NCBI GenBank assembly: GCA_012295275.1
Contig: CM022670.1
Location: 8,370,001 to 8,434,000, forward strand
Reading direction: 5' to 3'
Source: Chrysomallon squamiferum
Lineage: Eukaryota; Animalia; Mollusca
Length of the DNA stretch: 64,000 nt
The notes under the pieces are model-generated. The model saw only the letters and a list, made by a program, of their open reading frames with translations. It did no database searches and had not been told where the DNA came from. The translations under genes were made by a program, and so were the position numbers. Shown here piece by piece: positions 16,964 through 60,119 of this stretch. Every line of letters starts with the position of its first letter. The stretch's first letter is position 1.

Positions 16964-17023
16964 ATGGATGTAAGGCTGATATTTATACTGGTTATATCAC
17001 ACTTAGGTTTTTCTCAAGAAACA
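16964..17023 (+). CDS. First coding exon (signal peptide MDVRLIFILVISHLGFSQET) of the secreted mosaic-protein gene
   Basis: Acceptor gcatattacag| at 16958, ATG at 16964, 20 codons with n/h/c signal-peptide pattern, donor ACA|GTAAGT in phase 0 matching the phase-0 VNNNN exon at 19384. A same-length, same-phase paralogue lies at 63493. Confidence 0.75.
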
Positions 17024-17149
17024 GTAAGTACTAGTTTATATTGAACGTTATAATCAATAATATGTGTGTAAGTGAAACACTATTTAGAAAGTTTTATTTC
17101 TACAAAAATTCAACTTCAACGTGGGAGCGATTGTAAATTATTGGGAAAT

Positions 17150-18940
17150 TTTTTTATCTCTCTCTTTGCATTTGCCCGAGTCAACATTTATTCCAAATGG
17201 TTTTGGGGTTTGTAACGTGCGAATCCGAAACGCTTCTCGTTCAAGTCTAAAGACTCGAGAATGGCGTTTGTTCTATTGGGATTATTTCAAAATTTCCAAT
17301 ATATGACCAGGTAGATTAAAATGTTTGGCGACAGGAATGTCAACTTCATGCCTAATATCGTATTTGCGGACAAGCAGTTCTAACTCGTAACATACTTTGT
17401 GTTTGGACGACATACAGTTTTTTGCACAAGCTGCATATTGTCAAATACAAAACGTTTTTGGAATCGCAGTCTAGGTTAGTTCGGATCTGATGTTCACTTT
17501 TTGTTTTCCGCTACTGAACATAGACAGAGATTTTATTATGTTGTGAAGCCTGCATCTGGTCTTTTTGGAGATCGATGTAGATCCGCTACCCAAGTCAGGT
17601 GGAATATTATGTTGGATTTTATATGGTTTGAATGTGTCTGTTGGATGCAAGTGTTTTTCTAATTCTTTGACGATTTCAGATTTAACTTTCCTTAGAACTC
17701 GTTTGGAGTAACCTCTCGATTTCAGAGCGCAAAATAGAACTGAACAGGCATTGCTAAAATTTTCTTTGTTACTCGAATTTCTGTGGAACCTAATGACTTG
17801 ATATTTTACGATATCTTTAAATGTATGATGGAGATGAACGATTTAAATTGCAGCAGCTGGTTAGTGTCCGTCATTTTTCAAACTGTATACTTTGTAAATG
17901 GTTACATCCAAAAAGTCTACCGTTCGATTTGATATTGTGGCTTAAAGTTTTATATTATCATTTAATAATTTAAAATATATCGATAATTCGTCTTCAGAAT
18001 GCTGCCAAATAAAAAGAATGTTATCTAGATATCTGAGATATAAAAATGGTTTCATGGTTGCTGTGTTTAGTGCCGCTTCTTCCTATTCTGCGATATAAAT
18101 GGAGGACACCAATAAATGGGCTGAAACGCTTGCCCATGGCGCACCACAAACCTGCTGATACATTTCCCCGTTATATTCAAAGTCATTGCCCTTTAAGCTT
18201 AATTCAAGTAATTCACTAATGCTTTCTGTTGGTCTATCTGTGTCTGGATATTTTTCGAACGCTCTCTCAACTGATTCTATGCCCGCATCTATGTTTATGT
18301 TAGTGTACATGGAATCAGTATCCATGGTGACTAAAAAGGAGTTTGGTGCTATTTTTGTTTTAGATATTTTAGATAAAGGATCATCTTTATTTTTAACAAA
18401 ACTAGCATGTCTATTTGCAATTGGTTTTAAATAAGAGTCAGTGTATTCGGAAAAGTTATAAGATTCCGATCCACAATCGGAGATGATTGGTCGACTTGGT
18501 AGTGTGTTAATATCTGTCCATGTTTCAGCTGGCTTGTGTATCTTTGGGAGTAAATAAAATTTCTAGACTGAGAATCAAATCGTGATGCAAGATAGTTCGT
18601 CTGTTTTTTTTTATTTATATGATCCTTTTCCTATGGACGAACAATAATTGTGGTGAATTTATTTTTTGTTGGTTGGCCAAATGGCTATTCTCTTGATAAA
18701 ATAAGAGTTGCTGATCCTTTTTCTGCGTGTACTTTTCTGTAAGTTTTAAAGATCTCGGGATCAATTTTTGAATTATCGGGTGTCCAACCGGAATTTTCTA
18801 TTAATGGTATTTTTTCTCCACTTGAGTTTCTAAAATAACCGGCTAGTTTCATCTTATATTCTTTGGAGTGAGGGCGAATGGGTACCATACGTTCGAGTCT
18901 CGTCAGCGGCATCTGAGTGGATTGTGAGGTCGTGATTAGA
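17150..18940 (-). mobile_element. Degenerate Penelope-like retroelement (RT + GIY-YIG endonuclease) in intron 1
   Basis: Minus-strand peptides: FYLLPKIHKP, RPIISDCGSESY, LVTMDTDSMYTNI, LELSLKGNDFEYNGEMYQQ, YLRYLDN (catalytic DD mutated), VDFLDVTIYK, ALKSRGY, PVAKHFNLPGH, RLEREAFRIRTLQTPKPFGIN. Many frameshifts and stops. Confidence 0.9.
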
Positions 18941-19383
18941 CATTGTCCTCCTGTGCCAATGCGTTCCCGAATATTATCTATGTGCAGAGTCTATTTCAGA
19001 CGTACATACGTCAGAGAATATTCAAACTCCTGAACTACATGCTTGCCAGTGCCAGATTTCCCCCCCCCCCAAAAAATATATATATGCGCACAAAAATGAT
19101 AAAAGACAAAGAACAGGGAAGCGATGATTATGCTCGGTTATTGCGCAACCTAGTTTTTCTTCGGGGTTCATGGTTAAATCACTTCATAGAACATGTTACA
19201 GATGATATGTATAGTCCAACGCTTATGTTTTAACTAATCCTGATGAAAAGTACTAGAAAATGTGTACAATAAAGTGATATAAATATTATCTCATTATACA
19301 GATTTACTGTAACATATATATATATATATATATATATATAGCAATAAATTCGCATCTAAATAAATATATTTTATTACTTACAG

Positions 19384-19399
19384 GTGAATAACAACAATG
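19384..19399 (+). CDS. 16-nt micro-exon (VNNNN, phase 0 to 1), cassette 1
   Basis: ttacag|GTGAATAACAACAATG|gtaagt. Identical copies at 31508, 40965 and 53200. Confidence 0.75.
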
Positions 19400-19819
19400 G
19401 TAAGTTTCTACTTAATTACTTAACTTCAATTGGAAAAATAATACATGGCTATTCAATAGATTTGACCTTATCGTAATTATTATCTCAGTGTCTTATGCAT
19501 ACATAGACACAGACAAACAAAGATAATACAAATATAGACAGATATTTTATAGTGAGACAGAAAATTACACAGAGAACGAAAGTAAGAGACGGAGTAAAAA
19601 AACTACACATAAAAAGAAATATTGAAAGAAGGAAAGGAAAACAGAGAAAAGAATATGAGAAAAAATATTTGTGACAGCGATTTCTTAATTCATGTTCAAT
19701 TATCTATTAATAAATATAAAATATTTCACTTTACAACAAAACATACGTTTTGTAAACAAATAGAAGTTTTTCACATGTTACTGAAGAAATGATTGAATCA
19801 ATAATTTATTTTATTTCAG

Positions 19820-20628
19820 TGACAAACTGTCTGAATTCAAAAGACTGCTGGGTGCAGCACAATTTTCAGTTTGAAGATAACTGGAACGACTGTCATGGAA
19901 AACAATACGTGAGAAAAACCACTTACGAAGTTGGGAAATATGTTGGAGTAGTTCTGTGTTCATCTACAAGGTAATCATTAAAGTATTTATGTCTGTCTGT
20001 CTGTCTCTCTAAATTCTCCATGTTCTCTTGCTGTGACATACATACACATACACACACGTACACGCATACATGTGCAGATCCAATATTCTGACCACTACAG
20101 TTGTATTTTGCAGATATAAGCTGTTTTTGTCTGACTCGCTCAGTGACCGTTTTCTCAACATCGGAGACGGCAGTGGACATGGTCAGGATCATTGTGAGTT
20201 TATAGGAAGCAAAAATGATTCAACTTCTATAGACAGCAATTTCTGGAATTCGACAGGAACTACAGGTGTGATTTTCTTTTAAAAAAAAAAACATTTTAAG
20301 AGGCACATTTCCTTTAGAAACCTTCCTTAAATTGTTACAAAATGACGGAAAACAGTAAAACAGAATTGTTTTAAAGGGTGTCTGCAATTTATATTTTAGT
20401 GTTTAAACCGACATTTATTGATAACAATATATAATAAATGTAATTCTGATTCAGTTATTTATATCATTTTAGGATACATACGATCAAAGCGTGGTGAAAC
20501 GCCTGTCAAGGGCAGAATTGGTGAAGGCACGGGATCCTCGTGGACTGGAAAGTATTATGGAAAATGGATAGAATGTGGAGTCAGGATTCCAGGAAACAGC
20601 AGAGTGGTTTTATCGTCTGGTACAAAAG
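19820..20628 (+). CDS. ABI3BP/TARSH-FNDC1 C-terminal-like domain, copy 1 (exons 19820-19970, 20114-20265, 20473-20628)
   Basis: Canonical AG/GT, phases 1-2-1-1. Spliced peptide [74 protein letters not shown] matches the remembered ABI3BP C-terminus ([56 protein letters not shown]). Confidence 0.88.
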
Positions 20629-20852
20629 GTAATTCGTCTTGTCTTAAAGAAAGTTATATTTCTAGAAAGGATGTTTCTAATAGTTATTCTCTATAAGTAT
20701 GTCTGTGATGAAGTAATTATGTAACTAGTAAATTGAATCTGATCGAATATTTTGAGTTGATTATTTCAGATTTTAGATTTTTCAAATTACCAACATATCA
20801 AATAAATTACCTGAGTTATTATTTGTTGTAAATATTCGCTTTAACATTTTAG

Positions 20853-21239
20853 GATCGGAAACCACAAGTGAAAATGTGTCATGGGACAAGGTTAAATATG
20901 AAAAAAAAGTGTTTTTAAAAGATGAAATATTCACAGTGCCCAGCGGAGTGACGAAAATTGATGTCATTTGTGTTGGTACGTTCGTGTTAAAATTGCACAT
21001 TTTAGTACTATAATTTTTGTTTTAAAGATTTTATCTATTTGATTTACGATTAACAAAAATAACAGTAAGAGCTACAACAACAACAACAACAACAACAACA
21101 ACACTAATAATAATATCAACGAGCAAGGTGATGCAATGAATAAAAAAGAAAGAAAGAAAATAAATAAATAAATAGGTAAATAAAGAAACAAAGAATTAAA
21201 CAAAAAATCCCCCAAACAAACAAATTAAATCTGTTCAAA

Positions 21240-21270
<31 letters not shown>

Positions 21271-22307
21271 ATATTTTTGTAATTCACGTTATTAATTACT
21301 GACAGGAGGAGGTGGGGGCGGTAAAGATGGACATTCGAGTTCAGGGTCGGGTGCATACGGTGGGGATGGTGGAATGTCACAGTTTGGTGAATACCTCAAA
21401 GCAGAAGGCGGGAAAGGTGCCAAGTCAGATAATTCAGGTTTGTTATAAAAAAGTTTATGTAAGTAAATTAGCAAAGGTTTTGTTAAATGCACAAACGGAA
21501 TGTTTACCACAAATACATATCTTTTTTTTTCTGCAGTAATAAACTGACAACGAAGAAAGAAAGAAAGAAAAGAAATAATTAAATGCAATTAATTTTTCAA
21601 AAATAAATAACAATCGTCTCTTGTTTATTATCGAATTCTATATAGAGCAAATGTATCATACAACCACAGTTTGTTTAATATATCAACATTTAATAACTAT
21701 AAACATAGGTTCTTTGATTTATTTCATTGACAACTGTTAATGATAATATGGCAATTTCTAAGTGTTACACTATCAAAATTAAGAAGATCAAAAAAATAAA
21801 ATAAAACAATAATGGAATCTACTTTACACGTAGGAGGTGAAGGTGGACATGGTACAGTCGCCAATGGAGGCCAGGGAGGGATTGGTGGGGGTTGCAGCGC
21901 AGGTGCAGGAGCTGCAGGTCAGACAAGTGGAGGTGGGGGTGGAAAGGTTCCAGGATCATCCACATATCCCTACTGTGGCGGCGGGGGCAGTTCTGGAGGC
22001 AGTTCTTGCGGCAATGAATTTGCATCAATTCCCCCAGGAAAGTCAGGACCAGGAGGTGTTGATCCCGCGGGCAGATCTGGAGGTCTTTATGGGGGAGGTG
22101 GGGGAAGCAGAGCTGGTGGACGTGCTGGGGGAGGTGGTGGGTATTCCAGGAAAGTTATAAATGTGTCTCCAGGAGAGAACATCGCTATCAAAGTGGGAAA
22201 GGCAGGATCTCCAAGTTACTGGGCTGGAAAAGCTGCTCAAGGAATCGTTGTCGTGTCCTGGGGAGGACCTATTGATAATTTTGTCAACACATCAGCAATA
22301 TCAACAG
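20853..22307 (+). CDS. Glycine-rich domain, phage-tail/bacterial Gly-rich type (exons 20853-20975, 21306-21437, 21834-22307)
   Basis: All exons are phase 1-1 with canonical sites. Peptide FTVPSGVTKIDVICVGGGGGG...SQFGEYLKAEGGKG...GGGGGYSRKVINVSPGENIAIKVGKAG...GIVVVSW. Confidence 0.85.
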
Positions 22308-22329
22308 GTATCTATAGTTTGAAAAGAAT

Positions 22330-25300
22330 CGTACAAACTGTAACTAAAACAAAGATTTAAAAGTAAGAAACAAAAAAACTTGGTTAACTGTAAGCAAAAA
22401 AATACATTCCACCTTTGACTGTATTGCATCTTATTCTATATACCCTAGTACTTTTTAACACCGACCTTTCAGAAAAAATATATACAAGCTGGAACGGTAA
22501 ATATCTCAATGGTAATTCGGTATGCTTTTAGATCATTTGATGTTTCATAATCTTTTTACATTAAGCATTTACTCGTCTTAAAATATATTTATTTTATTTC
22601 ATTTTTCTATTATTTTTTATTTTCTGTTTTTAAAAGTTGTAATATATATTTTATCATTAAGATTTGAAAAAGATTGAAATATAATTTTTAATATTTAAAA
22701 AAAAAAAACTAACACAGATGTTAAAGTATAGCAAACAACACATAATTAGTGTATATACATTTTGTTCTTGTTTTGTCTTCTGTTATCTTAATCTGTTGTG
22801 CCAAATGTATTTTATCTGACAAAACTTTATCCATTACTTCTTACTGTTTTATGTTAAAATGACTCATTTTATCATGTAATTTACCTGATTTTACTTTGCT
22901 TTGTGCTTTTATTATCATAATCATCATCATTATCATTTTCATACCTACCATCATCATCTATGTATTCAGTTATAATAATAATAATTAGTAGTAGTAGTAG
23001 TATATGTAGTAATATTTGTATTATTATTATTATTACTACTATTATTGATAAGGTTATAATTATTTTGTTGTTGTTACTGTTATTATAATTACATGTATTG
23101 TTATTAGTAAATATCAATAACTAAATATTAAATATCAATAAGTCATTCATTTTAAAGTGTATTATATCTAAACACTGCATTTATTTCTGACTGTATGTAC
23201 TATTATTCTTATGACAGAACCAAGCTCTACAAGAACATCAGCAACTCCAGGTATTTATTTGAAAACTATCTCTCAGTTAGACACACACACTCTCTGTCTT
23301 TCTCTCTCCTTTTCATTTCTCTTCCTCTATCACTCTCTCTCACTGTCTCTCTTTCCATCTGTTTTTCTTACACATGCAGTCTCATTGAAAGTATGCATGT
23401 CAGTGTATGTATGTATGTATGTATGTATGTATGTATCTGTATGACAAGTTTTTATTTTAAAACTATCTCTTAGTGAGAAAAATACATTAGCAACATAAAT
23501 ATGTATGACTAATTTGAAAAAAAACATTCATAGAAACTGTGGATAAAACAAAAATTTGAAAATAAGAAATAAAAGATTGATTAACTGTAAACGAACAAAT
23601 AAATTCCAAGTTTGAGTGTATTACATTTTATTCTACATACCCTAGTACATTTTAACACCGACCTTTCAGAAACAGTATATACAAGCTGGAACGGTAAATA
23701 TCTCAATGGTAATTCGGTATTCTTTTAGATCATTTGATGTTTCATAATCTATTTACATTAAGCATTTACTCGTCTTAAAATATATTTATTTTATTTCATT
23801 TTTCTATTATTTTTTATTTTCTGTTTTTAAAAGTTGTAATATATATTTTATCATTAAGATTTGAAAAAGATTGAAATATAATTTTTAATATTTAAAAAAA
23901 AAAAAACTAACATAGACGTTAAAGTACAGCAAACAACACATAATTAGTGTATATACATTTTGTTCTTGTTTTGTCTTCTGTTATCTTAATCTGTTGTGCC
24001 AAATGTATTTTATCTGACAAAACTTTATCCATTACTTCTTACTGTTTTATGTTAAAATGACTCATTTTATCATGTAATTTACCTGATTTTACTTTGCTTT
24101 GTGCTTTTATTATCATAATCATCATCATTATCATTTTCATACCTACCATCATCATCTATGTATTCAGTTATAATAATAATAATTAGTAGTAGTAGTAGTA
24201 TATGTAGTAATATTTGTATTATTATTATTATTACTACTATTATTGATAAGGTTATAATTATTTTGTTGTTGTTACTGTTATTATAATTACATGTATTGTT
24301 ATTAGTAAATATCAATAACTAAATATTAAATATCAATAAGTCATTCATTTTAAAGTGTATTATATCTAAACACTGCATTTATTTCTGACTGTATGTACTA
24401 TTATTCTTATGACAGAACCAAGCTCTACAAGAACATCAGCAACTCCAGGTATTTATTTGAAAACTATCTCTCAGTTAGACACACACACTCTCTGTCTTTC
24501 TCTCTCCTTTTCATTTCTCTTCCTCTATCACTCTCTCTCACTGTCTCTCTTTCCATCTGTTTTTCTTACACATGCAGTCTCATATTGAAAGTATGCATGT
24601 CAGTGTATGTATGTATGTATGTATGTATGTATGTATCTGTATGACAAGTTTTTATTTTAAAACTATGACTCAGTGAGAAAAATACATTAGCAACATAAAT
24701 AGGTATGACTAATTTGAAAAAAACATTCATAGAAACTGTGGATAAAACAAAAATTTGAAAATAAGAAATAAAAGATTGATTAACTGTAAACGAACAAATA
24801 AATTCCAAGTTTGAGTGTATTACATTTTATTCTACATACCCTAGTACATTTTAACACCGACCTTTCAGAAACAGTATATACAAGCTGGTACGGTAAATAT
24901 CTCAATGGTAATTCGGTATTCTTTTAGATCATTTGATGTTTCATAATCTTTTTACATTAAGCATTTACTCGTCTTAAAATATATTTATTTTATTTCATTT
25001 TTCTATTATTTTTTATTTTCTGTTTTTAAAAGTTGTAATATATATTTTATCATTAAGATTTGAAAAAGATTGAAATATAATTTTTAATATTTAAAAAAAA
25101 AAAAACTAACACAGATGTTAAAGTATAGCAAACAACACATAATTAGTGTATATACATTTTGTTCTTGTTTTGTCTTCTGTTATCTTAATCTGTTGTGCCA
25201 AATGTATTTTATCTGACAAAACTTTATCCATTACTTCTTACTGTTTTATGTTAAAATGACTCATTTTATCATGTAATTTACCTGATTTTACTTTTGCTTT

Positions 25301-27940
25301 TGTGCTTTTATTATCATAATCATCATCATTATCATTTTCATACCTACCATCATCATCTATGTATTCAGTTATAATAATAATAATTAGTAGTAGTAGTAGT
25401 ATATGTAGTAATATTTGTATTATTATTATTATTACTACTATTATTGATAAGGTTATAATTATTTTGTTGTTGTTACTGTTATTATAATTACATGTATTGT
25501 TATTAGTAAATATCAATAACTAAATATTAAATATCAATAAGTCATTCATTTTAAAGTGTATTATATCTAAACACTGCATTTATTTCTGACTGTATGTACT
25601 ATTATTCTTATGACAGAACCAAGCTCTACAAGAACATCAGCAACTCCAGGTATTTATTTGAAAACTATCTCTCAGTTAGACACACACACTCTCTGTCTTT
25701 CTCTCTCCTTTTCATTTCTCTTCCTCTATCACTCTCTCTCACTGTCTCTCTTTCCATCTGTTTTTCTTACACATGCAGTCTCATATTGAAAGTATGCATG
25801 TCAGTGTATGTATGTATGTATGTATGTATGTATCTGTATGACAAGTTTTTATTTTAAAACTATGACTCAGTGAGAAAAATACATTAGCAACATAAATAGG
25901 TATGACTAATTTGAAAAAAACATTCATAGAAACTGTGGATAAAACAAAAATTTGAAAATAAGAAATAAAAGATTGATTAACTGTAAACGAACAAATAAAT
26001 TCCAATAAAATATATTTAATTTTATTTTACTTTGCTTTGTGCTTTTATTATCATAATCATCATCATTATCATTTTCATACCTACCATCATCATCTATGTA
26101 TTCAGTTATAATAATAATAATTAGTAGTAGTAGTAGTATATGTAGTAATATTTGTATTATTATTATTATTACTACTATTATTGATAAGGTTATAATTATT
26201 TTGTTGTTGTTACTGTTATTATAATTACATGTATTGTTATTAGTAAATATCAATAACTAAATATTAAATATCAATAAGTCATTCATTTTAAAGTGTATTA
26301 TATCTAAACACTGCATTTATTTCTGACTGTATGTACTATTATTCTTATGACAGAACCAAGCTCTACAAGAACATCAGCAACTCCAGGTATTTATTTGAAA
26401 ACTATCTCTCAGTTAGACACACACACTCTCTGTCTTTCTCTCTCCTTTTCATTTCTCTTCCTCTATCACTCTCTCTCTCTCACTGTCTCTCTTTCCATCT
26501 GTTTTTCTTACACATGCAGTCTCATTGAAAGTATGCATGTCAGTGTATGTATGTATGTATGTATGTATGTATCTGTATGACAAGTTTTTATTTTAAAACT
26601 ATCTCTTAGTGAGAAAAATACATTAGCAACATAAATATGTATGACTAATTTGAAAAAAAACATTCATAGAAACTGTGGATAAAACAAAAATTTGAAAATA
26701 AGAAATAAAAGATTGATTAACTGTAAACGAACAAATAAATTCCAAGTTTGAGTGTATTACATTTTATTCTACATACCCTAGTACATTTTAACACCGACCT
26801 TTCAGAAACAGTATATACAAGCTGGAACGGTAAATATCTCAATGGTAATTCGGTATTCTTTTAGATCATTTGATGTTTCATAATCTTTTTACATTAAGCA
26901 TTTACTCGTCTTAAAATATATTTATTTTATTTCATTTTTCTATTATTTTTTATTTTCTGTTTTTAAAAGTTGTAATATATATTTTATCATTAAGATTTGA
27001 AAAAGATTGAATAATATTTTTTAATATTTAAAAAAACAAAAACTAACATAGACGTTAAAGTGCAGCAAACAACACATAATTAGTGTATATACATTTTGTT
27101 CTTGTTTTGTCTTCTGTTATCTTAATCTGTTGTGCCAAATGTATTTTATCTGACAAAACTTTATCCATTACTTCTTACTGTTTTATGTTAAAATGACTCA
27201 TTTTATCATGTAATTTACCTGATTTTACTTTGTTTTGTGCTTTTATTATCATAATCATCATCATTATCATTTTCTACCTACCATCATCATCTATGTATTC
27301 AGTTATAATAATAATAATTAGTAGTAGTAGTAGTATATGTAATAATATTTATTATTATTATTATTATTACTATTATTGATAAGGTTATAATTATTTTGTT
27401 GTTGTTACTGTTATTATAATTACATGTATTGTTATTAGTAAATATCAATAACTAAATATTAAATATCAATAAGTCATTCATTTTAAAGTGTATTATATCT
27501 AAACACTGCATTTATTTCTGACTGTATGTACTATTATTCTTTGACAGAACCAAGCTCTACAAGAACATCAGCAACTCCAGGTATTTCTTTTTGAAAACTA
27601 TCTCTCAGTTAGACACACACACTCTCTGTCTTTTTCTCTCCTTTTCATTTCTCTTCCTCTATAACTCTCTCTCACTGTCTCTCTTTCCATTTTTTTCTTA
27701 AACATGCAGTCTCATTGAAAGTATGCATGTCAGTGTATGTATGTATGTATGTATGTATGTATGTATCTGTATGACAAGTTTTTTTTATTTTAAAACTATC
27801 TCTTAGTGAGAAAAATACATTAGCAACATAAATATGTATGACTAATTTGAAAAAAAACATTCATAGAAACTGTGGATAAAACAAAAATTTGAAAATAAGA
27901 AATAAAAGATTGATTAACTGTAAACAGAACAAATAAATTG
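22330..27940 (+). repeat. Tandem array 1: ~1.2 kb/0.74 kb units carrying five 33-nt micro-exons (23218, 24416, 25617, 26354, 27548) encoding EPSSTRTSATP
   Basis: tgacag|AACCAAGCTCTACAAGAACATCAGCAACTCCAG|gtattt in every unit. Spacings 1198, 1201, 737, 1194. Confidence 0.9.
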
Positions 27941-28468
27941 TCTGGTACAAAAGGTAATTCGTTTTTTCTTAAACCGTAGTACATTTTAACATCGATTTTC
28001 AGAAACAATATATACAAGCTGGAATGGGAAATATCTCAATGGTAATTCGGTATATTTTTTATATTAAACATTTGTTCGACATAAAACATATTTCTTAAAA
28101 TTATTTTTTTATTTCATTTTTCTATGTTATTTTTATTTTCGGTTTTTAAAAGTTGTAATATATATTTTATAATTAAGATTTGAAAAAGAAATCATAATAT
28201 ATATATATATATATTTTAATTAACACAAATACTGAAGTACAACAAACTATTGTAAGTAGCATGTGTAAATTTTCTTCTTTTATTTCTTGCATCTATTGTT
28301 CTTGTTGTTCTTCTTCTTCTTCCTCTCCTTGTTCTTGTTGTTCTTATTATTATTATTGTTCATAATGTTATTATTATTATTAAATTTAATACATGATAAA
28401 TTAAATGCAGAATTCTATTTGAAGACTGTATTTATTTCTGACTGTGTTTACATTTATTCTTTTTACAG

Positions 28469-28501
28469 AACTAACTACTACAACGACAACAGCCACTCCA
28501 A
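28469..28501 (+). CDS. 33-nt Thr-rich micro-exon (ELTTTTTTATP); copies at 37896, 50174 and 54662
   Basis: tttttacag|AACTAACTACTACAACGACAACAGCCACTCCAA|gtattt, phase 1-1. Flanks are paralogous to the EPSS-exon flanks. Confidence 0.75.
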
Positions 28502-28694
28502 GTATTTATTTTAAAACTATCTCTCTGTGAGTTAGAGATTCTCTGTCTCTGTCGCTTTGTCTCTTTATTCCATTTCTCACTCTATCACTCTGTCTCCTGC
28601 CCTGAGTCTCTCTCTTTCTCTTTCTCTACACGCACATCCAATCACATATGAAATGTATGCATGTCAGTGTATATATGTGTGAGATAACTATACT

Positions 28695-28784
<90 letters not shown>

Positions 28785-31394: not shown

Positions 31395-31507
31395 GTACAC
31401 ACACATATATATATACTTCACACATACACATTCGCATAAAGATATACACACATACAAATATATATATACATATTCGCATCTAACTGAATATATTTTAATA
31501 CTTACAG

Positions 31508-47100: not shown

Positions 47101-48710
47101 GTCAGTGTATGTATGTATATATGTATGTATCTGTATGACAAGTTTTTATTTTAAAACTATGACTCAGTGAGAAAAATACATTAGCAACATAAATAGGTAT
47201 GACTAATTTGAAAAAAACATTCATAGAAACTGTGGATAAAACAAAAATTTGAAAATAAGAAATAAAAGATTGATTAACTGTAAACGAACAAATAAATTCC
47301 AAGTTTGAGTGTATTACATCTTATTCTACATACCCTAGTACATTTTAACACCGACCTTTCAGAAACAATATATACAAGCTGGAACGGTAAATATTTCAAT
47401 GGTAATTCGGTATTCTTTTAGATCATTTGATGTTTCATAATCTTTTTATATTAAGCATTTACTCGTCTTAAAATATATTTATTTTATTTCATTTTTCTAT
47501 TATTTTTTATTTTCTGTTTTTAAAAGTTGTAATATATATTTTATCATTAAGATTTGAAAAAGATTGAAATATAATTTTTAATATTTAAAAAAAAAAAAAA
47601 ACTAACACAGACGTTAAAGTACAGCAAACAACACATAATTAGTGTATATACATTTTGTTCTTGTTTTGTCTTCTGTTATCTTAATCTGTTGTGCCAAATG
47701 TATTTTATCTGACAAAACTTTATCCATTACTTCTTACTGTTTTATGTTAAAATGACTCATTTTATCATGTAATTTACCTGATTTTACTTTGCTTTGTGCT
47801 TTTATTATAATAATCATCATCATTATCATTTTCATACCTACCATCATCATCTATGTATTCAGTTATAATAATAATAATTAGTAGTAGTAGTATATGTAGT
47901 AATATTTGTATTATTATTATTATTACTACTATTATTGATAAGGTTATAATTATTTTGTTGTTGTTACTGTTATTATAATTACATGTATTGTTATTAGTAA
48001 ATATCAATAACTAAATATTAAATATCAATAAGTCATTCATTTTAAAGTGTATTATATCTAAACACTGCATTTATTTCTGACTGTTTGTACTATTATTCTT
48101 ATGACAGAACCAAGTTCTACAAGAACATCAGAAACTCCAGGTATTTATTTGAAAACTATCTCTCAGTTAGACACACACACTCTCTGTCTTTCTCTCTCCT
48201 TTTTATTTCTCTTCCTCTATCACTCTCTCTCACTGTCTCTCTTTCCGTCTGTTTTTCTTACACATGCAGTCTCATATTGAAAGTATGCGTTTCAGTGTAT
48301 GTATATATGTATGAGAAGATTTTCTTTTAAAACTATCTCTCTGTGAGACAAATACATTAGCAACATCAATGGGTATGACTAATTTGAAAAAAAAAAACAT
48401 TCATAGAAATTGTGGATAAAACAAAGATTTGAAAATAAGAAACAAAAGATTGATTACCCGTATAACACAAATCAATTCCAAGTTTGAGTGTATAACATCT
48501 TATTCTATATACCCTAGTACTTTTTAACACCGGCCTTTCATAAATAATACATAGCGTTTATATGGGAAATATCTCAGTGTTAATTCCGTATGCTTTGTAT
48601 GATCATATGACGTCTTTAATAATCTTTTTCTGTTAAGTATTTGGTCGTGTTAAAATATGTTTATTTTATTTCATTTCATTGTATTATTATTCTATTTTCT
48701 GTTTTGAAAA
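41160..48710 (+). repeat. Tandem array 3 with eight 33-nt micro-exons (41420, 42624, 43822, 44569, 45307, 46024, 46918, 48108)
   Basis: Same unit. Variants EPSSTTTSATP, EPSSTRTSATP, EPSSTTASAIP and EPSSTRTSETP all keep 33 nt and AG/GT. Confidence 0.9.
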
Positions 48711-48883
48711 AGAATATGAGACAAAAAGATTTGTGACAGCGATTTCTTAATTCATGTTCAATTATTTATTAACAAATAAATAAAATATTTCACATTACAA
48801 CAAAACATACGTTTTGTAAACAAATAGAAATTTTTCACATGATACCGAAGAAATGATTGAAACAATCATTTATTTTATTTCAG

Positions 48884-49670
48884 TGACAAACTGTCTGAAT
48901 TCAAAAGACTGCTGGGTGCAGCACAATTTTCAGTTTGATGATAACTGGAACGATTGTCATGGAGAACAATACGTGAGAAAAACCACTTACGAATTTGGGA
49001 AATATGTTGGAGTAGTTCTGTGTTCATCTACCAGGTATTCATGTGTATCTCTCTAAATCTGTCTCAATCTCGATGTCTCTTGGCTATGACATACATACAC
49101 AAACGTACACGCACACATGTGCAGATCCAATATTCTGACCACTACAGTTGTATTTTGCAGATATAAGCTGTTTTTGTCTGATTCGCTCAGTGACCGTTTT
49201 CTCAACATCGGAGACGGCAGTGGACATGGTCAGGATCATTGTGAGTTTATAGGAAGCAAAAATGATGCAACTTCTATAGACAGGAATTTCTGGAATTCGC
49301 CAGGAACTACAGGTCAGACTTTCTTTAAAAAAAAACATTTTAAGAGGCACATTTCCTTTAGAAACCTTTCTTAAATTGTTACAAATTGACTGAAAACAGT
49401 AAAACAGAATTATTTTAAAGGGTGTCTGCAATTTATATTTTGGTCTAAACCGAGATTTATTGATCACAACATATGATAAATGTAATTCTGATTCAGTTAT
49501 TTATATCGTTTTAGGATACATACGATCAAGGCGTGGTGAAACGCCTGCCAAGGGCAGAATTGGGGGAGGCACGGGATCCTCGTGGACTGGAAATTATTAT
49601 GGAAAATGGATAGAATGTGGAGTCAGGATTCCAGGAAACAGCAGAGTGGTATTATTGTCTGGTACAAAAG
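48884..49670 (+). CDS. TARSH C-terminal-like domain, copy 3 (exons 48884-49034, 49161-49312, 49515-49670)
   Basis: Same lengths and phases as copies 1 and 2; open frame. Confidence 0.85.
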
Positions 49671-50396
49671 GTAATTCGTCTTTTCTTAAACCGTCTTGTT
49701 TCTAACATCGATTTTTCATAAAGAATATATACAAGCTGGAATGGGAAATATCTCAAAAGTAATTCGGTATGCTTTTATATTAAACATTTGTTCGACATAA
49801 AACATATTTATGTTATTTAAGTTCATTCTATGTTATTTAAGTTCATTCGGTTTTTAAAAGTTGTAATATATATTTTATAATTAAGATTTGAAAAAGATCG
49901 AAATATATATATATATATATTTTAATTAACACAAATACTGAAGTACAGCAAACTACACGTAAGTAGCATGTGTAAATTTTCTTCTTTTATTTCTTGCATC
50001 TATTGTTCTTGTTGTTCTTCTTCTTCCTCTCCTTGTTCTTGTTGTTCTTATTATTATTATTGTTCATAATGTTATTATTATTATTAAATATTAATACATG
50101 ATAAATTAAATGCAGAATTCTATTTGAAGACTGTATTTATTTCTGACTGTGTTTACATTTATTCTTTTTACAGAACTAACTACTACAACGACAACAGCCA
50201 CTCCAAGTATTTATTTTAAAACTATCTCTCTGTGAGCCAAGAATTCTCTGTCTCTGTCGCCGTTGTCTCTTTATTCCTCTTTCTCACTCTATCACGCTGT
50301 CTCCCGCCCTGAGTCTCTCTCTTTCTCTTTCTCTACACGCACATCCAATCACATATGTATGTATATTAATGTATATATGTGTGAGATAACTATACT

Positions 50397-50488
<92 letters not shown>

Positions 50489-50655
50489 GTCTGTATGACA
50501 GCATGCATACATGTAGGTGTACATGCATGTACGTTTGTATGTATGTATGAATTTTGTTTATAAGTATGTGTGTATATGTGTTTCTATGTGTACGTATGTA
50601 TGTAAATATGTAGATGTATATTTTGTTTCTAAACATTTATTATAATCATTTAAAG

Positions 50656-51848
50656 CTACTCGATGCATGGGAACGTATTGTTCCGGTTCGTATACGAGTG
50701 GAGCCAAATGTGTCAACGGATACTGTGTTTGTACAAACTGGATGGATACAACTACTATACGTGCCTACGTAAGCACTATATATAACTAAATATATCTATT
50801 CAGAAACGATCAGGTTCACACACAAACATACAGATACACATACATACCCACATATACATATACACACATGCACATACTCAGGCCTGCAAACACAAATATA
50901 CAGATGCACATGCACATAAACACACAGACACATTCACACAGACTGAGTCAGAGGCAATATTTGTAACGGGAAATACTCCGAATCGATAAAGTAAAGGAAC
51001 ATAGTTGAAATATTTTAAAATTATTTTTACAGCTGATTATGCTGGTTGTTTAGTACAAAGAAACAAGGAAACCAGGGCTGTTCCATCTTACCACGGCAGA
51101 AAGCGATCGTCTGTGTATGGTTGTATCAACAAAAGCAGTCTGAATCTGTCGCCCGAAGTTCATGTACTTGGATGCTATGAGAACATCAATCGAAGGCCAC
51201 CTAAAGCTGGGAATACAACTGTGGACATTGTGGGACACACAACCAAACCTGTTGTTCTGGTTTTGACCTCTTATGAACCTGTAGCCTGGAGGATTAATGT
51301 GCCTGCTGGAATGATTATCCAGAAAATCATGCTGGTAAAATTTCTCTAATTTTAAGAAAGCTTGTGTAGAATTTTTGGAATCTCATCACTTTGTAATAGT
51401 ATGTGTTATATATATATAGCCTACACATTACGGTGTAGAGTCATTTTATCGGTTAGCAATAGCGTATATATATATATATATAACTTTTGATAAAGTAGAC
51501 TGATAAAGCGTTTTTGGACTGCTAGGTAAAATGGGAAGTAACTTGATGTCTGTATGTGTTTGTATGCAGTATGTATGTGCATATTTAAAACTTTATATGT
51601 TAAAATCAAAATGAAATTGTTTTGCTTTCTTGCAGTATTCTTACTATCTGGATAAGAGTTCTGTAAGCGTGAGTGGTGGATCAAACCCTCCAGTTGAGAC
51701 AAGCAGAAAGAGTGTTTATGGATATGGTAGTGACAGCGGAGGTCACACGCTCAAGTTACTGGCTGAAGTCAAGAAACGCTTTGGTCATGTGACTTCCTTT
51801 TCTGGAACCTACAAAGTTGACCACTGGTCACTCACGGTGGGCATCTAG
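50656..51848 (+). CDS. Cassette 3 EGF-like exon (50656-50768, +2 nt frameshift) and SYEPV domain type A exons (51033-51334, 51636-51836/51848)
   Basis: Near-identical to 38400-39585. The EGF exon is 113 nt instead of 111 (ACAAACTGGATGGATAC vs ACAAAAACTGGATAC). Confidence 0.7.
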
Positions 51849-53199: not shown

Positions 53200-54694
53200 G
53201 TGAATAACAACAATGGTAAGTTTCTACTTAATTACTTAACTTCAGATAGAGAAACCAAAACATGATTATTGAATAGATTTGTCATTATCATGACTATTAT
53301 CTCAGTATCTTATGCTAAACGTATTATGACGTTATCTTATATTACCTTATCTTTCTCTTATCTTCTCTTCTCTTAATCTATTGTGTCAAATGTATTTTAT
53401 TTGACCAAACTTTATCCATTACTTCTTACTGTTTAATGTTAAAATGACTCATCTTATCATGTAATTTACATTATTTTACTTTGCTTTGTGCTTTTATTAT
53501 CATAATCATCATCATTATCATGTTCGTACCTACTATCATCATCTATGTATTCAGTTATAATAATAATAATTAGTAGTAGTAGTAGTATATGTATTATTAT
53601 TATTATTATTATTAATATTATTGATACGGTTATAAATATTTTGTTGTTGTTACTGTTATTATAATTACATGTATTGTTATTAGTAAATATCAATAACTAA
53701 ATATTAAATATCAATAAGTCATTCATTTTAAAGTGTATTATATCTAAACACTGCATTTATTTCTGACTGTATGTACTATTATTCTTATGACAGAACCAAG
53801 TTCTACAAGGACATCAGAAACTCCAGGTATTTATTTGAAAACTATCTCTCAGTTAGACACACACACTCTCTGTCTTTATCTTTCCTTTTTATCTCTCTTA
53901 CTCTCTCACTCTCCCTCACTGTCTCTCTTTCCATCTGTTTTTCTTACACATGCAGTCTCATATTGAAAGTATGCATGTCAGTGTATGTATGTATGTATGA
54001 ATGTATGTATCCCTATGACAAGTTTTTATTTTAAAACTATCTCTCTGTGAGACAAATACATTAGCAACCTCAATGGGTCGTACTAATTTGAAAAAAACAT
54101 TCATAGAAACTGTGGATATTACAAAGATTTGAAAATAAGAAACAAAAGATTGATTACCTGTATAACACAAATCAATTTCAAGTTTGAGTATATAACATCT
54201 TATTCTATATACGCTAGTACTTTTTAACACCGGCCTTTCATAAATAATACATAGCGTTTATATGGGAAATATCTCAGTGGTAATTCCGTATGCTTTGTAT
54301 GTTCATATGACGTCGTCAATAATCTTTTTCTGTTAAGTATTTGGTCGTGTTAAAATATGTTTATTTTATTTCATTTCATTGTATTATTATTCTATTTTCT
54401 GTTTTGAAAAGTTGTAATAAATATTATATCTTTAACATTTGATAATGATCGAACTATAAATTTTAATTTTTCTTATTTTAATTAACACAGATGCTGAAGC
54501 CCAGCAATAATGTTTGATTTCTTGCATGTTTTGTTGTTGTTTTTTATTATAATTATTGACAATGTTATTATTATTATTAAATATTAATACATAATACACT
54601 GTAAACTGAATTTGAAGGCTGTATTTATTTCTGACTATATTTAGATTTATTCTTTTTACAGAACTAACTACTACAACGACAACAGCCACTTCAA
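53200..54694 (+). CDS. Cassette 4 micro-exons: VNNNN (53200-53215), EPSSTRTSETP (53794-53826), ELTTTTTTATS (54662-54694)
   Basis: Canonical AG/GT, lengths 16/33/33, compatible phases. Confidence 0.7.
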
Positions 54695-54913
54695 GTATTT
54701 ATTTTAAAACTCTCTGTGAGCCAAGAATTCTCTATCTCTGTCGCCTTTGTCTCTTTATTCCTCTTTCTCACTCTATCACTCTGTCTCTCTCCCCAAGTCT
54801 CTGTCTTTCTCTTTCCCTTACACGCACATCGAATCGCATATCGAATGTATGTATGTGTATGACGTCAGAAACCCCAAGTAATTATTTCAAAACTCTCCCT
54901 GTGTGAGATTCCT

Positions 54914-55036
<123 letters not shown>

Positions 55037-55485
55037 TGGCTATTCAATAGATTTGACATTATCATAACTATGATCTTAGTAATCTATGCTAAACGTATTA
55101 TCACGTTATCTTATCTTACCTTATCTTTCTCTTGTCTTCTCTTATCTTAATCTGTTGTGTCAAATGTATTTTATCTCACCAAATATTATCCATTACTTCA
55201 CGTAGTTTTATATTTTCATGGCTTATTTTATCATCTAATTTACTGGTTTGAATTTTTCTTTTTTCTATTATTATCATAATAATCATCATTATCATTATCA
55301 TCTTCGTTATCATCATCATCTTCTTCATCTTCATCATGATAATCGCCATCGTCCCCCTTCTTCCCCTTTTCCCCCTTCTCCCTCTTCATTCTTCTTTTTC
55401 TTCTTGTTTTTGGTTATTCCTATTGATATCTTTGTTCAAAGTTAAAAAAATACATTCCATATAATTATATATAATTATGTTTCAG

Positions 55486-56856
55486 ATCTTCCCAGAAAAT
55501 CGTGCACGCGATATTGTTCTGGTTCATATAAAACAGGAGCTAAATGTATAAATGGATTCTGTGAGTGCAACAAACCCGGATACAACAAATATACCTGTTT
55601 ACGTGAGTGAAATATCGTTTTTATTATACTGGTAGGAGGGGAAAATCCACAAACAAACCCAAACACAAGAATGAAACAAAAAAGTAGAAAAACTATTTGA
55701 GCGAGTTACTAAAAATATGTCCAGTCGTTGTGAGACCGCTGTATATTTGTATTAGTATCATTTCTATTGTAGCTGGTATTGCTGTTATTCTTGTTGTTCA
55801 TATTATTATTATTATTTTTATTATTATTGTTGTTGTTGTTGTTGTTGTTGTTATTATTATTATTACTGTCATTATTATTGGCATTATTTTTACTAGTACT
55901 ACTATTATGTAGAAAACTTAAATTTTGTGACACTATAATATTCATAACAAAAGCTAAAATTGATTAATAGTAAAAGTCTTTTGTGTGATTGTTAACTACA
56001 TCAAGGAATGTTTCACCGGTTGTTGACCTAGTACTATTTTTTTTTTTTTTTTTTTTTTTTTATTGATTATTTATTTATTTAGTGGTACTTTGACTTACGA
56101 GTTTAATTATTTTAACGCCTTTGACTGAGTTACAGCCTGTATCGACTCCTTCTGCTTTTGTATGGTACTACGCTAGCACTGGCTAGCCAAGTGGACTATA
56201 TGCACACCTAGCTCATGTTTCTCTATGATTTCATGCTTTAATTCAATGGACATCATTCGCTTTTTCATCTCAGCACTGTCTTTTGCACTCACTTTCTTAC
56301 GATCCAAGGTCAGAAAGAAAAGAAAAGTTGGCAAAATATTGCACAAAACGGAAAAACAACACAAAAGACATGCTTCCGCGACGTTGTGTTGTTTGTTGCA
56401 CTAACTAGCGCCGGCGTAAATGCAGCTCACTCGTAACTCGATTTCGGCTCGCCACTCAAAGCAAAAAATCGATATAAATATAAATGAGGAATTTTAAAGT
56501 GATAAATATTCTCCATATCTGTTTTCTAAAATTATCTTTTAACCTTCCGGTATTTATCGATCTTTCTATCGTTGTTTGTTTATTTGTTTCTTTATTTTTT
56601 CGAACACTCAGTTTCCTCTTCTTTTTCGCTTTTTCTATAAAAGAAAAAGAAATTCTGGACAAATACTTTTAATATGATAGAGATACTATTTTTGAATATA
56701 CATTAATTTTATAGTTTAAAATCAAAGCAATGGAAATGGACACTGACCAGTGTGTATAACATTTACAAATATCACTGCCCACGAGTCGGGCAAATTATTA
56801 TTATTACAGCTGTTATTGTTGCTGTTGTTTCTGTTGTTATTGTTTCTATCATTATT

Positions 56857-56887
<31 letters not shown>

Positions 56888-57867
56888 TTAGTTTTCTCAG
56901 ACACTTTAGATATATCTATTCTTGTTTTCACAGCCGATGTAGGAAACTGTAGGATAATTCCTGGTAATTCCAGAGCAATTGCTATAGCAAAGTATAACGA
57001 TGTTACTCAAAAGCTCCGCAGCTGCGTCAACAACGTCGAACAAGGAAAATACGATGTCCACGTCCTCGGCAACTACGAGGGCAATGTTCACACAAGACCT
57101 GCATCAGCGGGAACGACAAGTGTGTACATCAAAGGAGAAAGTTCAAAACCTGTTGTTTTAGTTTTGTCAAGTTATGAACCAGTGAAATGGGTCATTCATT
57201 GTGACAGCCGTGTCAAAATGCATGCTGTACTGATGGTATTTATTTATTTATTTACATTTGTTTACTCAATTATTTGCTGATTCATTAATCAATCAGTTGC
57301 TAGATCTGCGAGTTAGTCAGAAGATCCTTCATCGTGAGTCAGTAATAGCTCAGTTATTAAGTTTGCCAATGTCTGTATAAGCCAATTAGCAGCTCACTCG
57401 GTTGTTGAATCAAAACGTGTTAGTGACAGATATAGAGGCAGAGAGACCTATAAACAAAGATTATAGAAATATAGATACTGTTATTAGTGCACAGTTAGAT
57501 GGTTAAAATCTAATTTGTTGGTCAAACCTTTCTGAACGTGACACTTTAAACATCGGATATATTTACATCATCTTTTACGCACTTTGAAATAATTTCTTTC
57601 AGTTCAGCTATTACCATACTATCAGCTCTGTGGATGTCAGTGACGTGGATAACTCAGGGTCAGTTATGATTGAGAAGGCGAGAAGATCATCTGCGATTGG
57701 TGACGACTCAGGAGGTGGAGACACAGTCGGCTTGTTGAAGTATCTCGACTTTAGATGGGGATCTGTAAAATCATTTTCCGGATGTTACAGAGCGGATGAG
57801 TGGACTCTCAAAGTATCCAAAGTGGAAGAGAAACCTAAAGGAAACATCTCAGTCAAATCATCGGCAG
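55486..57867 (+). CDS. Divergent (type B) EGF-like and SYEPV domain exons (55486-55602, 56934-57235, 57603-57867)
   Basis: SCTRYCSGSYKTGAKCINGFCECNKPGYNKYTCL | DVGNC..DVHVLGNYEG..KPVVLVLSSYEPVKW | FSYY..GDDSGGGDTVGLL..SFSGCYRADEWTLKV... Intron positions are conserved with type A (middle exon is 302 nt in both). Ends at the phase-1 donor CAG|GTAAGG. Confidence 0.85.
56080..56465 (-). mobile_element. Internally deleted Tigger/pogo fragment in an intron
   Basis: Minus-strand DRKKVSAKDSAEMKKRMMSIELKHEIIEKHELGV resembles the Tigger N-terminal HTH. TIR-like AGTGGTACTTTGACTTACGAGTTTAATT at 56081. Confidence 0.75.
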
Positions 57868-58165
57868 GTAAGGTTTCTAGTCTTAATTGCAACACAGAGA
57901 GATATACACACAGAGACACAGGCAAAGAAAGATAACAGAAATATAGACAGATATTTTATAGTAAAACAGAAAATTACAGAGTGAACGAAAGTGAGAGACG
58001 GAGTAAAAAACTATACATAAAAAGAAAAATTGAAAGAAGCGATTTCTTAATTCATGTTCAATTATTTATTATCAAATATATAAAATATTTCACATTACAA
58101 CAAAACATACATTTTTCAACATGTTACTGATGAAATGATTGAAACAATAATTTATTTTATTTCAG

Positions 58166-58218
58166 TGACAAACTGTCCGAATTCAAAAGACTGCTGGATG
58201 AATCTCATCACTTTGTAG
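58166..58218 (+). CDS. Truncated TARSH-type exon ending in a stop (VTNCPNSKDCWMNLITL*)
   Basis: Acceptor ttatttcag| as at 19820. After ~34 nt it is fused to intron sequence GAATCTCATCACTTTG (cf. 39120); TAG at 58216-58218. Confidence 0.55.
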
Positions 58219-58540
58219 TAATATTTGTTATATACTTTACATACACACATACATACATACATACGTACATACATACACATACATAGATACATACATACAT
58301 ACATACATACGTACATATACATTTGTGTATATATATATATATATATATATATAGTCATTTTATCGGTTAGCAGTAATGTATATTTATATATAACTTTTGA
58401 TGAAGAAGGCTGATAAAGTGGTTTTGGGCTGCTAGGTAAAATGGGAAATACCTTGATGTCTGTGTGTGTTTTACATGCAGTATGTGTTTGATTATTTAAA
58501 ACATTATGTGTTGAAAGGAAATTATTTTGCTTTCTTGCAG

Positions 58541-58755
58541 TATTCTTACTATCTGGATAAGAGTCCAGTAAGCGTGAGTGGCGGATCAAACCCTCCAGTT
58601 GAGAAAAGCAAAAAGAGTCATTGGATATGGTAGTGACAGTGGCGGAGGTGACACACTCAAGTTACTGGCTGAAGTCAAGAAACTCTTTTGTCATGTGACT
58701 TCCTTTTCTTGAACTTACCAAGTTGACCACTGTTCACTCACGGTGGGCATCTAGC
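58541..58755 (+). pseudogene. Frameshifted orphan copy of the terminal YSYYLDK...LTVGI* exon
   Basis: Similar to 39373-39585 but with indels and a TGA; followed by the 3' flank that is not joined to intron-1 sequence. Confidence 0.75.
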
Positions 58756-60119
58756 TTATCATTTGACTGTGCAAAGTCTCTGTTGTCCCACTGTCTAACG
58801 AATATTTTAATCAGAGTAATAATCATGAGTTCTTGTTCAATACAGTCAAACCTCTTTATAACGGCTCCCAGGAAACAGCATCTATTTATCGCTCACACAT
58901 GTTAGAACATCGACCGCCTGTATTTAAATATATATTAATTTAACCCCTATTTTCGCCCCCTGCCCAGATATCCGCATTGTGTATTATAAAATTGTAACAA
59001 ATAGCTGATTCATCTATTGGTACTTCCTCATTGCCAGAGAGATATTGTGGAAATAATGAAGAAACGAGGAACCGTTCTGCTTTGTGACAGTGAACGGTCA
59101 CTCGAGATCTAATATATAATTCAAAACAAAGTTTTCATACCTTCTAACAATTATATTACTTTTAAAAATTAAGACTTCCCCGTTCAAATTGCATGTACTT
59201 CAGTATCTGTATAAATAAACATGCTGAAAACCGCAATCAAGGCTCTTTCCTCATGGCTTGTCTTTCAAAACAACATGTATTGAAACCCAAATATCATTAA
59301 GTTCAAAACAAATACATCATTCATTTCTTCGAGAGAAAGTGAAGACAAAACAAGATATAAACACTTCAACAATCAGCGTTTTTTGTAATTTAAATTTTTT
59401 CTTTGACACCCGCTTATCGAACTACCCAAATAAACCATCTATAATTCAGCATACAGTTAGTAATTCTCTAAGACAATCGTGCTAACTCTGGGGTATTTTT
59501 AGGCCAGTTCTGATATTTGGTATGTGTAGTACCTAATAATCTCAGAAAACATCTACCGTCCAGTTCATTATAAACACAAAAATCAACTGAGCAACTCTAT
59601 CAGTGTTATAAACTGGTTTGACTGTATTTCATGTTTTCTTATTTCCTACTTGTAATAGAATTCTTTTCAAATAAATTCACTCAGAAATATGAATATTTGT
59701 TGTCTTTGTGAATACCTTTCCGTATTTAACAGACGATTGCTAGATTTCGTTCTTGCGAATGAGCTTATGCTTAAATAACATCTTTTCATATACATATTAC
59801 TTTAACATGAAAAATGTTTCAATATTAAATTTTTGGCTTCCATTCACAACACACATACACATGCATAGATATGGACACAAAAAGGCATAGATGTATACTA
59901 CACACACTCACGCACACACACATATACAGACACACACACATATACAAACATACACACATGCACACACATATACATACATACACACATATACATACATACA
60001 CAGATGCACACACACATATACATGCACACACACACATACATACATACACACACATATACATACATTCACACACATATACATACATACACACATGCACACA
60101 CACATACTTACATACATAC

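Follow-up and report, generated by a model that had tools for sequence, protein, structure and literature searches.

We analyzed a 64,000-nucleotide stretch of the Chrysomallon squamiferum genome (GenBank assembly GCA_012295275.1, contig CM022670.1, positions 8,370,001 to 8,434,000 of the forward strand; here, the window), in which a single gene of ca. 42 kb encoding one secreted mosaic protein had previously been proposed. One reading frame of 42 kb is not present. Instead, the locus consists of one signal-peptide exon followed by four cassettes, each headed by a micro-exon of the VNNNN type. Moreover, the two-exon SYEPV domain that closes the cassettes, first taken to be an unknown domain, is identified by profile search and predicted fold as a homologue of one orphan subdomain of betaglycan/endoglin (here, the orphan-like domain). 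We describe the layout first, then the domains, and finally how the cassettes might be expressed.

Between positions 16964 and 58754, within AT-rich animal DNA that is dense in microsatellites, we mapped 62 candidate exons: 1 leader exon, 4 VNNNN exons, three intact three-exon TARSH_C sets, 3 glycine-rich (Gly-rich) exons, Ser/Thr/Pro micro-exons (19 EPSS, 4 ELTT, and 9 candidates of 24 nt), four six-cysteine (6-Cys) exons, and four first plus five second SYEPV exons. This count leaves out the truncated TARSH exon at 58166. An acceptor AG precedes 60 of the 62, the exceptions being the first coding exon and 29322, and a donor GT follows 56, that is, all but four end exons and two damaged ones (28947 and 29322). 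The four VNNNN copies are identical, all with intact AG/GT. The dozens of small exons expected to chain in phase from 16964 were thus recovered. With matching phases, the frame stays open for 519 codons, from the signal-peptide exon across VNNNN, the three exons of TARSH_C, the three of the Gly-rich domain, and the micro-exons as far as 28501. Beyond that point the chain fails: all exons joined in order give a stop at codon 558 and 68 stops overall. The second SYEPV exons terminate in TAG at 30125, 39585, and 51848, and the C terminus of the Gigantopelta protein XP_041368724.1 falls on the same residue as these internal ends. A new VNNNN exon lies ca. 1.4 kb after each internal stop, and the three spacers are similar (1.35 to 1.38 kb). 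Since these internal terminal exons carry stops and are each followed by a new VNNNN exon, the region divides into four cassettes behind a single leader. A scan for hydrophobic leaders from 10700 to 64000, outside (TG/TA)n repeats, passed only the 16964 exon and a paralogue at 63493, so that the former is the sole signal-peptide exon upstream of the cassettes; the scan gave no leader-like exon in the three spacers.

A giant protein spanning the 42 kb, with all internal terminal exon pairs and VNNNN exons skipped, is very improbable. Because most exons are of phase 1-1, a formal chain of 52 exons and 1344 amino acids (aa) can be built, but it requires the skipping of intact exon pairs with good splice sites and is left without a type-1 orphan-like domain. 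No such junction was seen in the RNA contigs described below, the in-order chain stops early, as stated above, and the proteins of relatives terminate at the internal stop.

When joined to the leader, cassette 1 has an open frame of 519 aa and is damaged beyond; cassette 2 is intact (468 aa open) and 68% identical to XP_041368724.1. Cassette 3, as assembled, meets a stop at codon 346, with a +2 frameshift in its 6-Cys exon (50656). Cassette 4 yields 302 aa, with a stop at codon 303, ten codons into the last exon; its open frame is 72% identical to Gigantopelta XP_041357720.1, it is the sole carrier of a type-2 orphan-like domain, and a deletion spans TARSH exon 1 to the last intron. In a quick tree (46 rows; cluster members P0157, P0159-P0164, and P0166 dropped), type-1 and type-2 domains paired with different Gigantopelta genes (support of 95 and 100), so the two types predate the split of the window and Gigantopelta lineages. 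The nearest named relatives are two proteins of the gastropod Gigantopelta aegis (68 to 78% identity), and the cephalopod tissues suggested earlier for expression analysis are therefore probably the wrong place to look.

Table 1. Features of the cassette locus (positions within the window)
Feature	Position	Strand	Description
Signal-peptide exon	16964-17023	+	20 codons, phase-0 donor
VNNNN micro-exon 1 (head of cassette 1)	19384-19399	+	16 nt, phase 0 in, phase 1 out
TARSH_C copy 1	19820-20628 (19820-19970, 20114-20265, 20473-20628)	+	PF21731; exon 1-2 junction in RNA
Gly-rich domain, PF21722-like	20853-22307 (20853-20975, 21306-21437, 21834-22307)	+	Homology to Branchiostoma
Cassette-1 stalk	22473-28501	+	Five 33-nt EPSS, four candidate 24-nt, one 33-nt ELTT; 0.74-1.2-kb tandem repeats
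Damaged copy	27937-30125	+	TARSH exon-3 tail, 6-Cys (28947), SYEPV (29322, 29919); frameshifts, lost splice sites, TAG end
Cassette 2	31508-39585	+	VNNNN, stalk (5 EPSS), TARSH_C (36596-37387), ELTT, 6-Cys (38400-38510), orphan-like type 1 (38775-39076, 39373-39585, TAG)
Cassette 3	40965-51848	+	VNNNN, stalk (8 EPSS), TARSH_C (48884-49670), ELTT, 6-Cys (50656-50768), orphan-like type 1 (51033-51334, 51636-51848, TAG)
Cassette 4	53200-57867	+	VNNNN, EPSS, ELTT, 6-Cys (55486-55602), orphan-like type 2 (56934-57235, 57603-57867)
Cassette-4 tail	58166-58754	+	Truncated TARSH exon (58166-58217), broken type-1 end exon (58541-58754)

The identification of the SYEPV domain came from sequence and structure alike. 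A search with the exon found relatives in a snail, a coral, and a bacterium, and the profile had 864 representatives at an E value of ≤0.001. With an 88-sequence profile, hmmsearch retrieved four betaglycan entries (E values of 9e-9 to 2e-8). The AlphaFold model of the Gigantopelta homologue P0012 (mean predicted local distance difference test score [pLDDT] of 80; ca. 90 to 98 across the orphan-like domain) matched betaglycan/endoglin orphan domains in Foldseek (E value of 1e-7) and in VIA (Z of 18.0, 13.5, and 12.1; next row, 4.5). The top VIA match (6mzn; Z of 18.0, root mean square deviation equal to 2.4, 153 aligned) spans model residues 65 to 234 versus chain residues 30 to 359 (range ends only), which, as modeled, fits a continuous OD1 without an inserted OD2. 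A conserved loop, RPPxAG, falls in the alignment where betaglycan has its TGF-beta-binding loop, although the two differ in sequence; according to PMC11865472, that betaglycan loop is essential for TGF-beta binding. Betaglycan (TGFBR3) and endoglin (PDB 6MZN, 9B9F, 9FDY, 7LBG, and 5I04) are like the SYEPV domain in fold, sequence homology, and loop position. However, they have two intertwined subdomains, whereas each cassette has a single one, preceded by the 6-Cys module and ending in a stop or a short tail, with no ZP domain or membrane anchor among the mapped exons, a plan different from that of the two-subdomain, ZP, transmembrane co-receptors.

The free single copy is common in corals, molluscs, hemichordates, echinoderms, amphioxus, and some bacteria. 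PMC5464963 derives the betaglycan/endoglin orphan region from the duplication of an OR2-like ancestor with circular permutation. Given that the best alignment of the free copy is as a single unbroken chain, against betaglycan residues 30 to 359, our modeling suggests an ancestor in OD1 order, followed by tandem duplication and strand swapping. Small secreted proteins of this kind make the ancestral ligand of the orphan fold directly testable. Three homologues (P0003, P0124, and P0146) have several orphan-like repeats fused to sigma-70 domains, and a betaglycan-type domain appears to exist in bacteria. Among 64 proteins scanned, the partners of the orphan-like family were mostly extracellular (lectins, trypsin, WAP, antistasin, Reeler, VWD, TSP1, Sushi, and EGF), and 37 of the 64 had no Pfam family.

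The same 6-Cys plus orphan-like module is found in uncharacterized invertebrate proteins (Gigantopelta XP_041368724.1 and XP_041357720.1, Branchiostoma XP_019626214.1, Paramuricea CAB4002788.1, and records from Oculina, Saccoglossus, Glandiceps, Amphiura, Lytechinus, and Pinctada), several of them labeled PF26060; these were compared as proteins alone, so that stalk arrays and leader layout fall outside the comparison. One of them, P0002 (CAB4002788.1), carries the source name “myosin light chain kinase-like,” yet it has 6-Cys and orphan-like repeats and no kinase match. PF26060 (TGFBR3/endoglin-like N-terminal) appears in the precomputed lists of homologues P0002-P0005, P0008, and P0009 and not in that of P0001; no such family was returned by the Pfam copy scanned with the window exons. 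The literature searched yielded nothing on PF26060, on orphan-domain proteins of invertebrates, or on the locus, a weak negative as most subscription papers lie outside the coverage, and endoglin, TARSH, mucin, and betaglycan are not mentioned in the passages of PMC7895826 covered. Recognition of the free orphan subdomain across invertebrates appears new, as the same literature did not describe it, though Pfam appears to have a family for it.

As for the other modules, the general description of a secreted mosaic was borne out, with a phage-like Gly-rich domain (candidate PF21722 type), micro-exon stalks rich in Ser/Thr, a 6-Cys module, and one more domain. The three-exon TARSH-C-like domain belongs to TARSH_C (PF21731; gathering score of 27 bits) on exon 1 (53.3 bits; E value of 6e-14) and exon 2 (55.0 bits; E value of 2e-14), with a weak match for exon 3 alone (18.8 bits; E value of 3e-3). 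ABI3BP and FNDC1 have FN3 domains and TARSH_C at the C terminus. The cassettes share with ABI3BP/TARSH and FNDC1 the presence of TARSH_C beside Ser/Thr/Pro-rich sequence in a secreted protein. However, as the original prediction had stated, TARSH_C is here N-terminal or internal and repeated, with further domains after it in all three intact copies, and no FN3 is found among the mapped exons (no Pfam match on the 12 exons scanned), so we do not place the cassettes in that family. In the P0012 model, residues ca. 248 to 392, the predicted TARSH_C fold, gave weak SRCR-type matches (enteropeptidase, CD163, CD5, CD6, and hepsin; Z of 3.1 to 4.5).

The Gly-rich domain (exon 21834-22307) is 71 to 76% identical to Branchiostoma proteins (P0004 and P0005) versus only ca. 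41% to two other gastropod proteins, which suggests either unusually strong conservation or patchy inheritance. It resembles PF21722 (Gly_rich_2) of phages and bacteria, below the Pfam cutoff, and more weakly the glycine-rich domain of ALK/LTK: single window exons had no Pfam match to PF21722, and the amphioxus homologues scored 19.1 and 16.1 bits against a gathering score of 24.3. In Atlas, an amphioxus homologue scored 0.91, with 24 of 30 matches in PF21722 clusters. Foldseek gave a giant-virus protein (E value of 9e-8) with phage proteins close behind, and the model (mean pLDDT of 56) contains a jelly-roll core that weakly resembles TNF-family chains, ALK (7nx3; Z of 5.0), and phage fiber tips, all matches to solved structures falling below a Z of 8. 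A PDB sequence search with the Gly exon gave 0 matches, the Gly alignment against PDB was swamped by trypsin, and PHROGs gave weak tail-fiber matches for homologues only. Because two introns split it and the identity to amphioxus is so high, the Gly-rich domain is probably ancient in animals and not newly acquired from a phage.

The 6-Cys exon, described before as EGF-like, does have six cysteines and is EGF-like by their spacing alone; no EGF family was found in Pfam on either of the two exons scanned. The module was not among the VIA fold matches of the P0012 model, and Atlas was uninformative for the 6-Cys plus SYEPV part (best, 0.78). A scorpion short toxin identity for the module was rejected because the match was subthreshold (22.3 versus 25.1 bits). 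The cassette-1 stalk comprises 97 aa, 49% Ser plus Thr and 11% Pro, which is short beside gel-forming mucins. The nine 24-nt “YTSWN” candidates have AG/GT and a symmetric phase; no RNA support for them was found here.

Neither the modules nor their pairings are peculiar to this lineage, contrary to what had been proposed. Among 166 proteins screened for domain pairings, TARSH_C occurs with the orphan-like domain in 8 (two from Gigantopelta; one each from Pinctada, Glandiceps, Saccoglossus, Amphiura, and Lytechinus; and one unnamed record), and amphioxus proteins run from Gly-rich through a Thr/Pro linker and 6-Cys to the orphan-like domain. TARSH_C with Gly-rich was found in 0 of the 166, as were all three globular domains (TARSH_C, Gly-rich, and orphan-like) together. 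From these comparisons, the modules and pairings are old, and what appears new, not seen elsewhere, is the three-domain mix and the apparent shared-leader cassette layout. The claim of an unrecognized architecture holds for the three-way mix and not for the sub-architectures, whose presence in relatives is in part the kind of finding that had been named as speaking against it.

The region from 27937 to 36193 is repeated at 37371 to 45695. Between 30126 and 33000, 6 substitutions and 11 gaps separate the first copy from its twin, every gap lying in a homopolymer; between 27937 and 30125, there are 55 substitutions and 47 gaps, compared with 15 and 12 for the second copy against the third. The 6-Cys/SYEPV exons at 28947 to 30125 have frameshifts and have lost one donor and one acceptor. 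Private 9-mers of this damaged copy matched the stalk repeat in 70 of 435 cases (24/432 in the intact twin and 1/120 in the third copy, used as a control), and alignments show two parents finely interleaved. Such interleaving is the effect of mismapped reads on a consensus, so the lesions at 28947 to 30125 and one whole unit are likely assembly artifacts (mosaic consensus error), judging by the window's own copies; alternatively, the unit may be a very recent duplication. Since 27937 to 36200 looks like the next unit assembled twice, the true cassette number is probably three, not four. Removing the doubled unit, or skipping its exons, leaves a first gene that is open as far as the first intact stop, encodes up to 962 aa with TARSH_C present twice, and comes near to the set of domains originally listed. 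The locus is thus a clear case of a repeat-rich long-read assembly inflating and damaging such arrays. Two further stretches, 46401 to 46640 and 28780 to 28930, interleave two repeat parents; in the former, 92 of 230 11-mers are unique within the window, versus 0 to 7 in four control zones, and both mosaics are likely consensus errors.

These data could also be read as one working gene followed by leaderless duplicates, a possibility that we consider rather unlikely. The gene would run leader, VNNNN, TARSH_C, Gly-rich, stalk, TARSH_C, 6-Cys, and orphan-like domain to the first intact stop, the damaged ca. 9-kb unit being an assembly duplicate and cassettes 3 and 4 incomplete duplicates that read-through transcribes but that are not translated. 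A 962-aa frame is indeed open to 39585 when the three damaged exons and the VNNNN exon at 31508 are skipped. The near identity of 30126 to 33000 to its twin with differing gaps confined to homopolymers, the enrichment of the private 9-mers in stalk-repeat sequence, the frameshift in cassette 3, and the deletion in cassette 4 all go in the same direction. However, cassette 4 has a fully open type-2 domain, the orthologue of which is a gene of its own in Gigantopelta, the tail of this cassette is spliced, and splice sites are intact on all four VNNNN exons.

RNA evidence came from three runs of a single study (X1, X2, and X3), whose contigs were compared over 16300 to 22600 only, at a depth of ca. 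6; gaps in coverage (parts of the Gly exons and the leader junction) were not counted as evidence. A fourth run, X4, is of unrecorded type, probably DNA, and its depths were not taken as copy number. The junction between TARSH exons 1 and 2 of copy 1 was found in RNA contigs of all three runs, and an X1 contig stops exactly at the last Gly-exon donor (22307). At the exon-2 letter 20220, the RNA of X1 shows both forms, that of X3 the cassette-2/3 form, and that of X2 the cassette-1 form. X1 contigs have loose ends that correspond, ahead of TARSH exon 1, to 57835 to 57864, where the type-2 exon ends, and, after it, to 58198 to 58217 together with 58541. The tail of cassette 4 is therefore spliced, and the deletion in this cassette is real. 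In X2, a mixed loose end before TARSH exon 1 (2 contigs; agreement, 0.68) looks by eye like a blend of EPSS and cassette-4 exon ends. In X4, TARSH exon 3 is followed by a junction like that of cassettes 2 and 3; this run has many mismatches to the window and may represent another individual.

Given that VNNNN takes phase 0 and that the 16964 leader is the sole upstream phase-0 donor with a start codon, cassettes 2 to 4 could be secreted only via this leader. We give about even chances to an explanation in which the leader is spliced alternatively to one cassette or another, yielding several secreted proteins. The products would have ca. 300 to 960 residues, with a separate stop for each cassette. 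Arrays of Ser/Thr/Pro micro-exons would form O-glycosylated stalks of adjustable length, as every micro-exon is of phase 1-1, and the stalks would hold out three binding modules, an orphan-like beta-helix, TARSH_C, and a Gly-rich jelly-roll, in matrix or mucus. For the role of these proteins, we favor matrix or microbe-surface recognition, a prediction that may well be right or wrong in equal measure, over capture of TGF-beta/BMP-family ligands, which we predict with little confidence and on a par with some other function. Doubtful too is a broader scheme in which one leader and alternative whole-protein cassettes, with micro-exon stalks tunable in length, generate a repertoire of secreted binding proteins and the free orphan-like domain is the unswapped ancestor, in OD1 order, acting as a soluble trap for TGF-beta/BMP or symbiont surfaces.

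The cassettes could instead be separate small genes whose own leader exons or promoters are missing from the assembly or misplaced in it. The two Gigantopelta types do lie on different contigs as separate genes, one with its own signal peptide, and the region has mosaic zones (46401 to 46640) and a second leader exon at 63493. However, the spacers are alike, none has a leader-like exon, and three independent assembly losses would be required, which makes this explanation quite improbable.

Splicing of a shared leader to alternative cassettes would have parallels in loci with a common 5′ and a variable 3′ part, such as lola and the immunoglobulin heavy-chain constant genes. In Drosophila mod(mdg4), a shared 5′ exon is combined with tandem alternative 3′ units, according to the abstracts of PMC6237743 and PMC12692577. 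Here, in contrast, the putative shared part would be the leader alone and the variable part a whole multiexon protein. If the leader is shared, the locus would represent a common-5′/variable-3′ diversification scheme for secreted proteins in a mollusc.

Several observations weigh against the shared leader and the binding role given to its products. Although cassettes are transcribed and spliced, and the junction check proposed originally succeeded for TARSH exons 1 and 2, no leader-to-VNNNN junction was seen among the contigs listed (16300 to 22600; depth of ca. 6; one study), and one X1 contig reads unspliced across the leader exon-intron boundary. No AATAAA or ATTAAA lies within 900 nt 3′ of the stops at 30125 and 39585, and GTAAG donors are found at 30163, 39623, and 51886, 38 nt past each internal stop, so the downstream cassettes could be spliced as a read-through 3′ untranslated region. 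Codon differences between TARSH copies number 10 to 11 nonsynonymous versus 4 to 5 synonymous (3 versus 0 for type-1 copies), too few for purifying selection on the duplicates to be demonstrable. The structure modeled is that of Gigantopelta P0012, 72% identical to the cassette-4 module, and not that of the window's protein. TGF-beta binding by betaglycan needs both subdomains, endoglin OR2 by itself does not bind BMP9, and orphan-like homologues are present, too, in proteins carrying bacterial sigma-70 domains; a single free orphan-like domain therefore need not bind growth factors.

Downstream of the cassettes, 63493 to 63552 (+) is a second 60-nt phase-0 signal-peptide exon, which begins with MDV, resembles the 16964 exon, and is probably the start of the next paralogous gene. 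Ca. 1 kb at 9240 to 10158 is duplicated at 60535 to 61504 (87% identity), one copy upstream of each leader exon, which suggests an older segmental duplication of the locus. A high-copy genomic repeat in intron 1 (ca. 18880 to 19030; X4 depth of ca. 50,000) has copies near 30268, 39727, and 51990, one in each spacer, from which unequal crossing-over could have started. This stretch, common to intron 1 (ca. 18955) and the spacers, had been considered as a duplication breakpoint, a candidate dropped because of its high copy number. Another high-copy repeat lies at 16300 to 16510 (X4 depth of ca. 14,000). Upstream, at ca. 5139 to 10640 (+), there is a protocadherin-type gene with a large exon encoding six cadherin repeats (PF00028; E value of 1e-95) and a hydrophobic stretch, and with small exons, read by eye, near 8292, 8885, and 10600.

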